From positions 29,320-93,319 of the forward strand of contig JAAEOK010000075.1 in assembly GCA_024244705.1 (NCBI GenBank): 64,000 nucleotides of DNA. Reading direction: 5' to 3'. Position numbers and translations under genes: made by a program. This stretch comes from Alphaproteobacteria bacterium (GTDB lineage: Bacteria; Pseudomonadota; Alphaproteobacteria; JAAEOK01). Below, one piece after another: positions 8,797 to 44,962 of this stretch. Position 1 is the first letter of the stretch; every line of letters starts with the position of its first letter. The notes below the pieces were generated by a model. It was not told where the DNA came from, did no database searches, and saw only the letters and a program-made list of their open reading frames with translations.

Positions 8797-10383
8797 CTAT
8801 GCGCCCAGGTGACCGCTGTGCTCGGACGGTGAGCCGACCTCGTGCTTCTCGGCGGCGAGCCGCTTGAGCGCCAGGCGGTCGGTCTTGCCGGTCGGATTGA
8901 GCGGTATTTCGTCGAGGAACTCGATCTCCTCGGGCGCCTTGTAGCCGACCCGGTCGCGGGCAAAGCGGATCAATTCGTTGACCGGTGGCGGGGTGGCCCC
9001 GTCCTCGAGCGCCACATAGGCGCGCACGTTCTCGCCATGGAGCAGGTCGTAGACTCCGATCGCGCCGACAGCCGCCACGGCGGGATGCTCGAGCAAGGCC
9101 TCCTCGACCTCCTGGGGGCAAATATTCGAGCCGTCGTGAACGATGATCTGCTTCTTGCGGCCGCAGAACCAAAGGAAGCCGTCCTCGTCCGACTTCATCA
9201 CGTCGCCGGTATCGAGCCAACCCTCGCGGTAGACCTCTTGCGTGGCCTGCGGGTTGTCCCAATAGCCCACCGTGCTGGTCGGCGTCTTGGCCCACAAACG
9301 CCCCTCGACGCCGTGCGCGACTTCCCGGTCCTGTTCGTCGCGAATGGAAAAATGAAACCCATGGACGGGACGACCGACCGAACCCAATCTATAGTCGTCG
9401 GACGGCGGGCTAAGCGTGGCCAAGCCGATTTCCGTCATGCCATAGCCTTCATCGATGGGGAAACCCGTCAGCTCGGTAAATTCTTTCTCGAGCTCCGCCG
9501 GCACCTTGTCACCGCCCGAGCGCACCAGGCGGAGCGAGGCGAAGTCCTCACGGGTCGCCCGGTGCTCGCCGACAAAGCGCAACAGCGCCGCCGGCAGCAT
9601 GCACAGCACGGTTGGTCGCTCCGACCGCAACAAAGGGATGATTTCGTCGCCGTCGAAAGTACGGACCACGATGACGCGGGCACCGACCGACAAGGCCGCG
9701 AATGAAAACAGGAAGCCGCCGAGGTGGGATATCGACGAACCCGGCATCATGACGTCGCCGGCCGTGAGTTCGAAACCATGGGCGCAGGCGGCGAACATCC
9801 ATCCAAGCGTGTTGTGGGAATGGGTGACGCCCTTGGGTTTGCCGGTGCTGCCCGAGGTGAAAAAGATGACCGCAGGATCCTCCGCAAGCGGTGCCGCAAA
9901 CGTGGTGTCGGAGGCTTCGCGCGCGACCAATTCCTCGAAGGCCGGGCGGCGCCCGTCATCGGCGCCATAGGAGATCAAGCCGTGCGACAATTGGCCGGCC
10001 AACCGGCTGTCGGCGATGTCCGGGTCGCGCTCGGCATGGGCGAACAGGACGGCCGCGCCGCTGACCTCGAGCGCGTGATCGATCTCCGGCGCGGTGTAGC
10101 GGTAATTGAGCGGGGTCGCGACGAGGCCGGCGCGGAGACAGGCGAGGTAATGGATCAACAAGGCGTCCCGGTTGGGCATCAGCGAGGCGACCCGCGTCCC
10201 GGGGGTCAGGCCGAGGTCGCGCAGACCGGCGGCGACATTGGCCACCGCGTGGTCGAGTTCGCGCCAAGTCCAACGCCGTTCCGCTGAAACCAGCGCGGTC
10301 TCGTCGGGCTTGGCCTGCACTTCGGGACGCAGCAGACCGGCGATCTCGAAGGGTGCTTTCAGGGGATGTCCGGTGAGAGGCAT
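8797..10383 (-). CDS. AMP-dependent synthetase/ligase (acyl-CoA synthetase, fatty-acid-CoA ligase family)
   Basis: AMP-binding motif FTSGSTGKPKGV, an adenylation core and a C-terminal ligase domain. Confidence 0.8.
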   Translation of the reverse strand: MPLTGHPLKAPFEIAGLLRPEVQAKPDETALVSAERRWTWRELDHAVANVAAGLRDLGLTPGTRVASLMPNRDALLIHYLACLRAGLVATPLNYRYTAPEIDHALEVSGAAVLFAHAERDPDIADSRLAGQLSHGLISYGADDGRRPAFEELVAREASDTTFAAPLAEDPAVIFFTSGSTGKPKGVTHSHNTLGWMFAACAHGFELTAGDVMMPGSSISHLGGFLFSFAALSVGARVIVVRTFDGDEIIPLLRSERPTVLCMLPAALLRFVGEHRATREDFASLRLVRSGGDKVPAELEKEFTELTGFPIDEGYGMTEIGLATLSPPSDDYRLGSVGRPVHGFHFSIRDEQDREVAHGVEGRLWAKTPTSTVGYWDNPQATQEVYREGWLDTGDVMKSDEDGFLWFCGRKKQIIVHDGSNICPQEVEEALLEHPAVAAVGAIGVYDLLHGENVRAYVALEDGATPPPVNELIRFARDRVGYKAPEEIEFLDEIPLNPTGKTDRLALKRLAAEKHEVGSPSEHSGHLGA

Positions 10384-10554
10384 GGTTTACGCCCAATCGG
10401 AATGATCAAATCATGGCCGACAGGTCCTAATCGATCCCCGCCCCGAGCGAAAGGGTTTTCGGCGCGTCGTGGATTTCATCGGGGCGCATGGTGACCAAAG
10501 CGTGATTTCTTGGCCCTTTCGCGGAATGCGGAGAGCGCCTATATATAGGGCGTC

Positions 10555-10862
10555 GGGCAACCGACTATGGCGATAAACGATGTTCGCAATAAGCAATGCG
10601 GACCCGGGGGCGGTACCCGGCGCCTCCACCATCTACCGGTTTTCGTCGCGGCCTCGGCGCGGCGTCACGTTATGGGGGCGAAATAGGATCGACGCGTGTG
10701 TAAAGGTATATCTTTCGCTCGGCATGGTACCACCGTTATCGGGCCAAAACCAAAGATGCCAATGACAACGATTTGGCTCTCGCTGCTTAATAGCTAAGCA
10801 AGCGCGGTTCGGGGGGCACCGGGCAACAGAAGCCCCCCACTGTTTGGTGAATGCGAACGGGG
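10555..10862 (+). ncRNA. ssrA: Two-piece (circularly permuted) tmRNA gene ssrA, encoding tag ANDNDLALAA; ends about 3 nt before the sspB ATG
   Basis: - Acceptor piece: a 5-7-5 T-arm (CCGGG-GGCGGTA-CCCGG), a CGCCTCC 3' acceptor strand and discriminator A-CCA (10621-10631), i.e. the gene-level sequence ends GCCTCCACCA.
- Coding piece: after a 42-nt spacer, starts at 10674 with GGGGGCGAAATAGGATCGACG (tmRNA 5' consensus GGGGnnGAnnnnGGAUUCGACG), whose GGGGGCG pairs with CGCCTCC.
- Tag ORF: GCC AAT GAC AAC GAT TTG GCT CTC GCT GCT TAA TAG (10758-10793) gives ANDNDLALAA, a double stop inside the canonical stop hairpin, and an LAA ClpX degron.
- P2: the 3' tail GGTGAATGCGAACGGGG is complementary to GTTCGCA in the acceptor-piece 5' region.
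- Boundaries are approximate. Confidence 0.75.
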
Positions 10863-10864
10863 TC

Positions 10865-11350
10865 ATGACGCAGGCTGACTACAACTATAACCTTCTCGTT
10901 CACGACGCACTGACCGGCGTCGTGCGCGGCGTTTTGACCGACGCGGCGAAGAACGGGTTGCCCGGACAGCACCATTTCTACATTACCTTCTCGACCGGCC
11001 ACCCCGGCATCGAAATGCCCGACTATCTTCGCGTTCAATACCCGGAAGAGATGCCGCTGATATTGCAGCACCAGTTCTGGGGTTTGGACGTATTCGACGA
11101 TTCGTTCGAGGTGACACTCAGCTTCAAGGGCGTTCACGAACGCCTCCATGTCCCGTTCGAGGCGATCACGACCTTCGCCGACCCCTCCGTCAATTTCGTT
11201 CTTCGCCTCGGCCTCGTCGATTCCGACGAGATCGGTGACGGCGAAGAAACCGCGCCCGAAGGGGCGACGCTGCACCAGGACGACCTGCCCGTGATCGATG
11301 CGGACGACGGCGACAATGTCGTTTCCATCGATTCCTTCCGCAAAAGCTGA
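10865..11350 (+). CDS. sspB: ClpXP adaptor SspB (stringent starvation protein B), SspB-alpha type
   Basis: Strong similarity to alphaproteobacterial SspB: ...HHFYITFSTGHPGIEMP...YPEEMPLILQHQFWGL...FEVTLSF...LHVPFEAITTFADPS... and a C-terminal ClpX-binding tail VVSIDSFRKS. Start taken at the ATG MTQADYNYN (10865); alternative TTG/GTG codons lie at 10844/10847. Confidence 0.8.
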   Translation: MTQADYNYNLLVHDALTGVVRGVLTDAAKNGLPGQHHFYITFSTGHPGIEMPDYLRVQYPEEMPLILQHQFWGLDVFDDSFEVTLSFKGVHERLHVPFEAITTFADPSVNFVLRLGLVDSDEIGDGEETAPEGATLHQDDLPVIDADDGDNVVSIDSFRKS

Positions 11351-11483
11351 GCCACTCACCGGCCCTCTTCGGCTCGGGGCTCCCGGCATTGCATTGCCGC
11401 CGTTTTCATTTCAAGGTGTGAGGGACGTTCGGACTCTCTTCCGCCGCCGGATTTCAATGTGAGTCTCAACTGCCGACAATTTC

Positions 11484-13103
11484 ATGCCCGATAGCCCCAG
11501 CTTTTCCTATCACGAGATGTTTCCGCTCGGTGCGGACGATACCGCGTATCGCACGCTGACCGCCGATTTCGTCTCGGAGGCCGTTTTCGAGGGCGAACCG
11601 GTGCTGAAAATCGATGCGGAGGCGCTAACGCTGCTGACCCGCGAGGCCTTTCGCGATTGCTCGCATCTGTTGCGCAGCGGCCATTTGAGACAGTTGCGCG
11701 CCATCCTCGACGATCCCGAGGCATCGGACAACGACCGCTTCGTCGCCCTCGACCTTCTGAAGAATGCCAACATCGCGGCCGGCGGCGTCTTGCCGATGTG
11801 CCAGGATACCGGCACCGCCATCGTGATGGGCAAGAAGGGGCGCAACGTCTGGGTCACGGGCAGCGACGAGGAGGCGATCGCACGCGGCATCTTTCGCACC
11901 TATACCGAATCGCACCTCCGCTACAGCCAGGTGTCGCCGCTGTCCATGTTCGAGGAGAAGAACACCGGATCCAACCTGCCGGCTCAGATCGAGATCTATG
12001 CCACCGTGGGCGATGCCTACAAATTCCTCTTTATGGCCAAGGGCGGCGGTTCCGCCAACAAGACGTTCCTCTACCAGCAGACCCCGGCGGTCTTGAACGA
12101 AGACTCGCTGATCTCGTTCCTCGACGAGAAGATTCGCACCCTTGGGACATCCGCCTGCCCGCCTTACCACCTCGCGATCGCCATCGGCGGCACGTCGGCC
12201 GAGCTCAATCTCAAGACCGTCAAGCTGGCCAGTACGCGCTATCTCGATACGCTGCCGATCGCCGGCGGCGCCGAAGGTCAAGCCTTCCGTGATTTGGCGA
12301 TGGAGGAAAAGGTTCTCGACCTGACCCGGGCCATGGGTATCGGCGCCCAGTTCGGCGGCAAGTATTTCTGCCACGATGTCCGGGTTGTCCGCCTGCCCCG
12401 TCACGGTGCTTCGGTGCCGATCGGGCTTGGCGTCTCGTGCTCCGCCGACCGCCAGATACTCGGCAAGATTACCCGTGACGGCGTGTTCCTCGAGCAGCTC
12501 GAGGCCAATCCGGCACAATACCTGCCTGAAATCACCGGCGACATCCTCGGCAGCGACGTTGTTCGCCTCGACCTGACCCGACCGATGGCGGACATCCTCG
12601 GCGCGCTGACCAAGCACCCGGTCAAGACCCGCCTATCACTGACCGGTCCGATGATCGTCGCCCGCGACCTCGCCCACGCCAAGTTGAAGGCGCGGCTCGA
12701 CGCCGGCGAAGACCTGCCCGCCTACATCAAAGCCCATCCGGTCTATTACGCCGGCCCGGCCAAGACACCCGAAGGCTACGCCTCGGGTTCGTTTGGCCCG
12801 ACCACCGCGGGACGCATGGATTCCTATGTCGATCAGTTCCAGGCCGCCGGCGGCTCGTTGGTCATGCTGGCCAAGGGCAACCGCTCGCGCCAGGTCACCG
12901 AGGCCTGCAAATCCCACGGCGGCTTCTATCTCGGTTCGATCGGCGGCCCGGCGGCGCGACTGGCCCAGGATTGCATCAAGAATGTCGAGTGCATCGAGTA
13001 TCCGGAACTCGGCATGGAAGCGATCTGGCGTATCGACGTCGAGGATTTCCCCGCTTTCATCGTGACCGACGACAAGGGCAACGATTTCTTCGACGCAATC
13101 TAG
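11484..13103 (+). CDS. fumA: Fumarate hydratase class I (Fe-S dependent, FumA/FumB type)
   Basis: Full-length, near-colinear similarity to E. coli FumA ([73 protein letters not shown]...). The ATG at 11484 aligns with the FumA N-terminus. Confidence 0.9.

Positions 13104-44562: not shown

Positions 44563-44962
<400 letters not shown>

Follow-up and report, generated by a model that had tools for sequence, protein, structure and literature searches.

How is the gene of an adaptor protein transcribed when it lies almost against the gene of the RNA that supplies the tag the adaptor recognizes? The question is raised by a stretch of 64,000 nucleotides (nt) from an Alphaproteobacteria bacterium (contig JAAEOK010000075.1, positions 29,320 to 93,319; the whole stretch is called the window below), in which ssrA, the gene for transfer-messenger RNA (tmRNA), is followed on the same strand by sspB. 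SspB is the adaptor that hands tmRNA-tagged proteins to ClpXP. An earlier reading made from the letters alone (the sequence-only reading) had proposed that sspB is transcribed together with ssrA and processed from its precursor. We are confident that the locus is a conserved alphaproteobacterial ssrA-sspB(alpha) gene pair, both in the identity of the genes and in their synteny. The order ssrA then sspB is the normal, class-wide arrangement in Alphaproteobacteria, Caulobacter included, and what is specific to the window is the extreme 23-nt spacing of this ordinary conserved pair. From that spacing we infer, at a little better than an even chance, that read-through of sspB from the ssrA promoter followed by cleavage after the tmRNA terminal hairpin is the most likely route to the sspB mRNA. 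The features on which the argument rests are as follows.

10513 to 10551, plus strand: ssrA promoter region, covered by the 5' conserved positions of Rfam family RF01849
10539 to 10544, plus strand: conserved -10-like CTATAT, from the RF01849 alignment against the sequence
10552 to 10631, plus strand: tmRNA acceptor (tRNA-like) piece with 5' hairpin, P2 3' strands, T-arm and acceptor 3' strand in the Rfam structure alignment
10629 to 10631, plus strand: CCA end of the acceptor piece, from the sequence and the Rfam alignment
10632 to 10673, plus strand: intervening segment excised from the permuted precursor, between CCA and GGGGGCG in the Rfam alignment
10674 to 10841, plus strand: tmRNA coding piece, with its 5' end GGGGGCG at 10674 and the end of RF01849 at 10841
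10758 to 10793, plus strand: tag reading frame, ANDNDLALAA and two stops, as called by ARAGORN
10811 to 10838, plus strand: terminal hairpin GGGGGGC, 14-nt loop ACCGGGCAACAGAA, GCCCCCC, then the conserved ACU to 10841
10842 to 10864, plus strand: spacer GTTTGGTGAATGCGAACGGGGTC, 23 nt, between the last conserved tmRNA base and the ATG
10865 to 11350, plus strand: sspB (SspB-alpha, 161 amino acids), a PF04386 profile match
11384 to 11409, plus strand: terminator-like hairpin and T run (CGGCATTGCATTGCCG then CCGTTTTCAT), a consensus match only, from a consensus scan

Judged by their sequences, both genes are ordinary family members. The ssrA region matches RF01849 with 266.6 bits against a gathering score of 50, over model positions 1-355 of 355 (10513-10841, plus strand), and also RF04321 (tmRNA_permuted) with 156.8 bits, while ARAGORN calls a permuted tmRNA at 10537-10881 with the tag ANDNDLALAA followed by two stops. 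ARAGORN and Rfam give the same permuted order of CCA-bearing acceptor piece, intervening segment and coding piece with the tag frame, and transcription is predicted to start at about 10552. The acceptor piece has 80 nt in the window; that of S. meliloti was mapped at 82 nt (PMC2873474), and experiments in Caulobacter and S. meliloti, cited in PMC2873474 and PMC3985003, are the source of what is known on the processing of two-piece tmRNA into two stable RNAs and on its function in trans-translation. The open reading frame (ORF) of sspB matches PF04386 at residues 11-130 (E 5.5e-39, 134 bits against a cut-off of 27), and phmmer places it with the PDB entries 2NYS of Agrobacterium (E 6e-34) and 2QAS (E 4e-28) and 2QAZ (E 2e-27), both Caulobacter SspB. 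The protein is 100% identical to GY791_13080, an NCBI 'Alphaproteobacteria bacterium' protein from a metagenome-assembled genome (MAG). An alignment of 22 homologues shows a variable acidic linker followed by a C-terminal V-V/I-S/A-L/I-D-x-F-R-K, here VVSIDSFRKS, in which F158, R159 and K160 are invariant, and which is presumably the ClpX-binding tail. Tag binding and enhancement of ClpXP, established for SspB, are expected of the window's protein from its family membership. Rfam, ARAGORN and Pfam together confirm that ssrA lies immediately upstream of sspB on a common strand, as had been read from the sequence.

The same adjacency was then counted from either gene. A scan anchored on sspB, with one genome per species, gave 80 loci, of which 78 were informative and two had too little upstream sequence. 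ARAGORN placed a permuted tmRNA directly upstream of sspB and on the same strand in 65 of the 80, Rfam added five loci (three of them cut by contig ends), and a search for the terminal hairpin added one more (L018; loci of the survey are cited by such numbers), so that ssrA stands directly upstream of sspB in 71/78 informative genome loci (91%). These 71 loci span Azospirillum, Rhodocista, Stella, Inquilinus, Asaia, Rhizobium, Methylobacterium, Microvirga, Xanthobacter, Camelimonas and many MAGs. Individual proteins led to nine other loci, among them the window's close relatives and Caulobacter-type sequences, and ssrA lies upstream in each (9/9). A survey anchored on tmRNA, using the pattern CACCNGGCAACAGAAGCC on metagenome contigs, gave 108 loci that extend 500 nt or more beyond the tmRNA; in 84 of the 108 a same-strand sspB lies no more than 1.5 kb past the tmRNA 3' end, and in four more it lies 2-7 kb off, behind inserted genes. 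The sequence-only reading had doubted that the linkage is a general feature and had proposed to look for it in related genomes; the adjacency proves to be strongly kept there, and the doubt is contradicted. The neighbourhood could in principle have arisen by chance placement, and the pairing is indeed missing from 7/78 genome and about 20/108 metagenome loci, with other genes, for example a transporter-like ORF, able to intervene. Immediate same-strand adjacency in 78-91% of loci from several alphaproteobacterial orders, for two genes whose products, the ssrA tag and SspB, are established members of one pathway, nevertheless makes incidental placement extremely improbable.

Several loci depart from the simple pair. 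In the metagenome loci L141, L156 and L192 an ORF of about 450 amino acids for a membrane protein (…FGGPAAQIALMH…GPLILVTQF…) stands between the tmRNA 3' end and sspB, which appears to resemble the chromate-transporter family. We had considered the insertions between ssrA and sspB as integrase islands and rejected this, since what is inserted resembles membrane transporters and a solute-binding protein and not integrases (judged without a Pfam search), and no integrase was seen among the insertions in L141, L156 and L192. In L057, L081, L088 and L089 there are extra tandem copies of the 3'-terminal hairpin segment of the tmRNA (…GCC(T/A)GCCAACAGAA…CCAC) between ssrA and sspB, three of them visible in the L057 spacer with a period of about 120 nt and two to four in the Caulobacter-type loci; they may be relics of integrase attachment-site duplication at the tmRNA 3' end. 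In L075, a Skermanella MAG, neither ARAGORN nor Rfam found a tmRNA upstream of sspB. About 150 nt upstream of its sspB there is an acceptor 3' end, GCGCCTCCACCA, and some 70 nt further on …GGAAGCCTCCCACT, with thyX upstream as in the window's relatives, which looks like either an assembly artefact or a tmRNA that has lost most of its coding piece.

Literature text searches, which did not reach the original SspB-alpha and two-piece tmRNA papers, found no printed statement of ssrA-sspB synteny. CC2102, a Caulobacter protein of 162 amino acids, is listed as a signature protein present in nearly all Alphaproteobacteria (PMC1182365, PMC2241609). What the partners are and do was known before, as was, for Caulobacter at least, the fact that they are neighbours; our survey adds how frequent the pairing is across the class and where the tmRNA truly ends on its 3' side. 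The synteny is also useful for annotation, because many sspB genes are still entered as 'hypothetical protein', among them the identical NCBI protein and, in the Caulobacter TSS table, CCNA_02187.

How close the two genes are depends on where the tmRNA ends. The stretch between the tag stop and the start of sspB was compared among 66 loci, and the terminal hairpin could be placed in about 80. Conservation of sequence halts at ...GCCCCCCACU, after the ACU 3' of the stem, which is position 10841 in the window and also the end of the RF01849 model. The loop of the hairpin, ACCNGGCAACAGAA, is nearly invariant across loci, and the stem covaries (about 75 loci), with pairs such as GGAGGC/GCCTCC, GTGGGCC/GGCCCAC, GAAGGC/GCCTTC, GCAGGC/GCCTGC, GGGCGGC/GCCGCCC and GGAGGGA/TCCCTCC, besides others. 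Across loci the coding piece measures 165-213 nt up to the hairpin. Counted from the 5' G of the coding piece to the end of the hairpin it is 205 nt in Rhizobium loci and 211 nt in a Caulobacter-like locus, and the Caulobacter coding piece has a reported size of about 210 nt. The mRNA-like piece of S. meliloti was mapped at 214 nt by Ulvé et al. 2007, in the summary given by PMC2873474. We place the tmRNA 3' boundary at 10841 because of the stop in conservation, the covariation of the stem and the piece lengths mapped in S. meliloti. This suggests that the mature tmRNA 3' end of the window lies at the hairpin or a few nt beyond it, at about 10838-10847. The gap between ssrA and sspB is thus 23 nt (10842-10864), and the S. 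meliloti end-mapping suggests about 17-23 nt should the mature end fall a few nt past the hairpin.

The ARAGORN call ends later, at 10881 and inside sspB, and had to be considered as a sign that the two genes overlap. In all 66 loci, though, the 3' coordinate that ARAGORN gives for a permuted tmRNA equals the tag stop plus 88-91 nt. Because of this fixed offset we regard 10881 as a nominal extension and have discarded the overlap as an artefact; for the same reason the call enters the downstream gene wherever the spacer is short. This overrun into sspB is a trap in automated annotation, which the boundary set by the survey for the two-piece tmRNA gene avoids.

The other end of the gap is equally well fixed. 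M1 of SspB is invariant in the 22 homologues, the N-terminal length is equal in 21/22 (the exception, P0003, is called with a 6-residue upstream extension), and the close relative L085 has zero in-frame start codons upstream of its sspB ATG. We therefore take ATG 10865 as the true sspB start, which upholds the start first proposed for it. The upstream candidates TTG 10844 and GTG 10847 were ruled out by the invariant M1 and by L085.

These boundaries bear directly on a different picture of the locus, in which the coding piece carries a helix-forming tail up to about 10862 that occludes or supplies the sspB ribosome-binding site, so that tag and adaptor are mechanically coupled. The sequence-only reading had described such a P2-forming 3' tail (GGTGAATGCGAACGGGG, 10846-10862), ending about 3 nt before the sspB ATG. 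In this one sequence GGTG (10846-10849) can indeed pair with CACC (10817-10820), and ARAGORN puts the end of the gene at 10881. The comparison of loci speaks otherwise: in 66 loci there is zero conservation past the ACU that ends at 10841, which makes the tail unconserved spacer and not tmRNA, the real gap is 23 nt and not 3, and the ARAGORN end reflects the constant 88-91 nt offset described above. A downstream complement to the hairpin loop occurs in 2/74 distinct loci against 2.8 expected by chance, and tail-to-loop pairing was rejected on this count.

The ribosome-binding site itself gives the same result. The window has a Shine-Dalgarno-like (SD-like) GGGG at 10859-10862, 2 nt from the AUG and within the CGGGGTC that precedes the start codon. 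Its duplex with the anti-SD sequence is computed at -6.2 kcal/mol with a gap of about 1 nt, against a median of -4.0 kcal/mol and a 6-nt gap in 164 loci. The terminal helix ends at 10838, 21 nt before the GGGG, and the GGGG/AUG region is predicted to be weakly paired. Folding of 10806-10900 (z -0.34) and of 10842-10900 (z +1.53) is no better than that of shuffled controls, and occlusion of the site by structure was rejected on this ground. Spacer lengths over the 164 loci are continuous from 18 to 1108 nt, most being 80-200 nt with a median of about 100 nt, so a fixed geometry of helix and ribosome-binding site is not conserved among lineages. The proposal that the tmRNA 3' helix blocks or provides the sspB ribosome-binding site has accordingly been dropped, and we regard a helix-forming tail that couples the two genes as very improbable. 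The CGGGGTC element and the first sspB codons form a palindrome in the window, GTCATGAC (10862-10869).

Where, then, does the sspB transcript begin? The sequence-only reading had seen no promoter-sized gap between the genes and in this it was right, the gap being 23 nt only. In the closest relatives the number of nt after the ACU is 23 (L085), 24 (L087) and 42 (L086), and these three and the window share only CGG(G/A)GTC right before the ATG, the remaining spacer being unrelated. Because the 23-24-nt spacers are unconserved apart from this CGGRGTC, a conserved -10/-35 pair plus leader cannot fit in them. A leaderless transcript would require a -10 at GCGAAC, CAGTCG or GCGGTC, none of which is promoter-like. 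A sigma-70 consensus scan of 10300-11600 called zero promoter-like sites; this is weak evidence, since the ssrA promoter itself escaped the scan too.

Read-through from the ssrA promoter would proceed as follows. RNA polymerase would start at about 10552 and read through the terminal hairpin, where the U tract is weak (ACUGUUUGG, 5 T in 10); cleavage or trimming at the 3' end of the coding piece would release an sspB mRNA downstream whose leader measures about 20 nt; and this mRNA would end at the terminator-like hairpin at 11384-11409. The consensus scan called this terminator-like site after sspB and none between ssrA and sspB. Such leaky 3'-end formation would give much tmRNA and little adaptor mRNA. 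Spacers of no more than 40 nt occur in 21/164 loci (13%), the window among them, and for this group as a whole we give slightly less than an even chance to the idea that the sspB mRNA lacks a promoter of its own and is a 3' by-product of pre-tmRNA maturation. Cultured members of the group are Microvirga terricola (L040), Camelimonas lactis (L028), Alsobacter metallidurans (L008) and Azospirillum brasilense (L013), in which sspB starts 25, 26, 30 and 34 nt after the hairpin, respectively.

Four points weigh against read-through in the window. The terminal hairpin with the ACUUU-rich sequence after it is terminator-like in many loci and could stop most transcription; the U tracts of the short-spacer loci L040 (ACUUUCUUUUUU) and L008 are stronger than that of the window. 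The spacing of the GGGG just 2 nt from the AUG is unusual for a translation start. The gene downstream of ssrA in Caulobacter has its own primary transcription start site (TSS), and where measurements exist they thus prove independent transcription. Finally, alphaproteobacterial promoters fit the sigma-70 consensus poorly, as the missed ssrA promoter illustrates, which leaves room for a promoter inside ssrA.

The last two points also define the main rival, according to which the sspB promoter is embedded in the 3' part of ssrA, for example in the tag or post-tag region, and the adjacency reflects shared function and genome compaction and not shared transcription. The Caulobacter evidence comes from the NA1000 5'-end map (Zhou et al. 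2015, PMC4287350, S1 dataset), in which the tmRNA begins at 2338502 and CCNA_02187, the gene next after it, has a primary TSS of its own at 2339064; two 'internal TSSs', 2338615 and 2338692, are listed inside the tmRNA gene. The -10-homologous motif of ssrA, CCCTATAT, in the Caulobacter-like loci L089 and L081 lines up with the tmRNA TSS mapped there and with the promoter window of that TSS (Zhou et al. 2015), and the promoter window of TSS 2339064 (…GACGCGCTAGGCTT) is the motif found just upstream of sspB in the Caulobacter-type loci L081, L088 and L089. The 5' end at 2338615 (+113) falls where RNase P is expected to generate the 5' end of the coding piece and is therefore probably a processing site and not a promoter. 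(The window has a full-length class A RNase P RNA, RF00010, 287 bits, at 44566-44962 on the plus strand; RNase P is the enzyme expected to cleave the 5' end of the tmRNA coding piece.) Further in favour of a promoter close to sspB, about 10 long-spacer Xanthobacteraceae-like loci have the same CGCGCTAG-type -10 motif 35-40 nt before the sspB ATG.

Against a promoter within ssrA in the window, besides the empty scan, stands the fact that the candidate region is constrained tmRNA sequence, common to long-spacer species that would not need such a promoter, and that the leader of the transcript would include the very stable terminal hairpin. Tests for motif enrichment in the long spacers were also negative overall: TTGNNN-N15-19-CTANNN occurs 8 times against 12.4 expected, CTAG, GCTA and related motifs are not enriched, and TANNNT is weakly enriched (60 against 47.6 +/- 4.8), so that a general promoter signature has no support in these spacers. 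We consider a promoter embedded in ssrA the less likely route for the window, at roughly three chances against seven, and we keep read-through from the ssrA promoter as the preferred route there. Read-through cannot be a general route, because spacers range from 18 to 1108 nt and the Caulobacter downstream gene has its own primary TSS. General co-transcription of ssrA and sspB is not supported, and transcriptome papers on Methylosinus, Zymomonas and S. meliloti do not mention ssrA-sspB transcription. The proposal that sspB is transcribed with and processed from the ssrA precursor is accordingly plausible for the 23-nt gap of this locus and fails as a rule for the class.

If read-through holds, tmRNA transcription would set the level of the adaptor through the frequency with which polymerase passes the terminal hairpin; in Caulobacter tmRNA transcription is regulated in the cell cycle. 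The locus would then be a clear example of a tmRNA precursor that gives rise to a protein-coding mRNA, and would have a built-in means of matching the tag-specific adaptor to the tagging RNA.

The genes on either side of the pair are the following.

8797 to 10383, minus strand (opposite to ssrA): gene for an AMP-binding enzyme, the upstream neighbour of ssrA
11484 to 13103: class I fumarase gene, the downstream neighbour of sspB

Upstream of ssrA the relatives have thyX where the window has the AMP-binding enzyme. The class I fumarase gene also follows sspB in the relatives L082, L084 and L086, and the Caulobacter TSS table has a fumarate hydratase gene, CCNA_02194, some genes downstream of ssrA; the shared fumarase indicates that the conserved neighbourhood is larger than the ssrA-sspB pair.

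The closest known system is that of Caulobacter. Its SspB-alpha (CC2102 / CCNA_02187; structures 2QAS and 2QAZ) shares with the window's protein the family and the conserved C-terminal tail; CC2102 is reportedly the SspB-alpha of the 2007 work of Lessner and co-workers. SspB-alpha was reportedly characterised in Caulobacter by Lessner, Venters and Keiler and by Chien and co-workers, both in 2007. Caulobacter ssrA (CCNA_R0049) is followed by sspB on one strand, the same gene order as in the window, but its spacer of about 180-440 nt holds the mapped primary TSS 2339064, for which the 23 nt of the window leave no room. The RNA is the two-piece, circularly permuted tmRNA of Alphaproteobacteria, said to have been described by Keiler, Shapiro and Williams in 2000. 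The window matches RF01849 over its full length, with acceptor piece, excised segment and coding piece with an ANDN...LAA tag; it differs in the shortness of its coding piece, which has 168 nt where most loci have about 207 and lacks the extra hairpin between tag and terminal hairpin.

E. coli shares with the window the functional partners (ssrA tag, SspB adaptor and ClpXP), although SspB-alpha and E. coli SspB have only a distant sequence relationship. The E. coli sspB gene shares a transcript with sspA and is unlinked to ssrA, which lies near smpB. The nearest parallel for the proposed transcription is the thrU-tyrU-glyT-thrT-tufB operon of E. coli, an experimentally established mixed operon of stable RNA and mRNA. 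The window differs from it in that the upstream RNA is a tmRNA and not a tRNA and in that co-transcription is inferred from the 23-nt spacer; the logic that the two would share is that of one promoter serving a stable RNA and a protein gene, with RNA processing separating the products.

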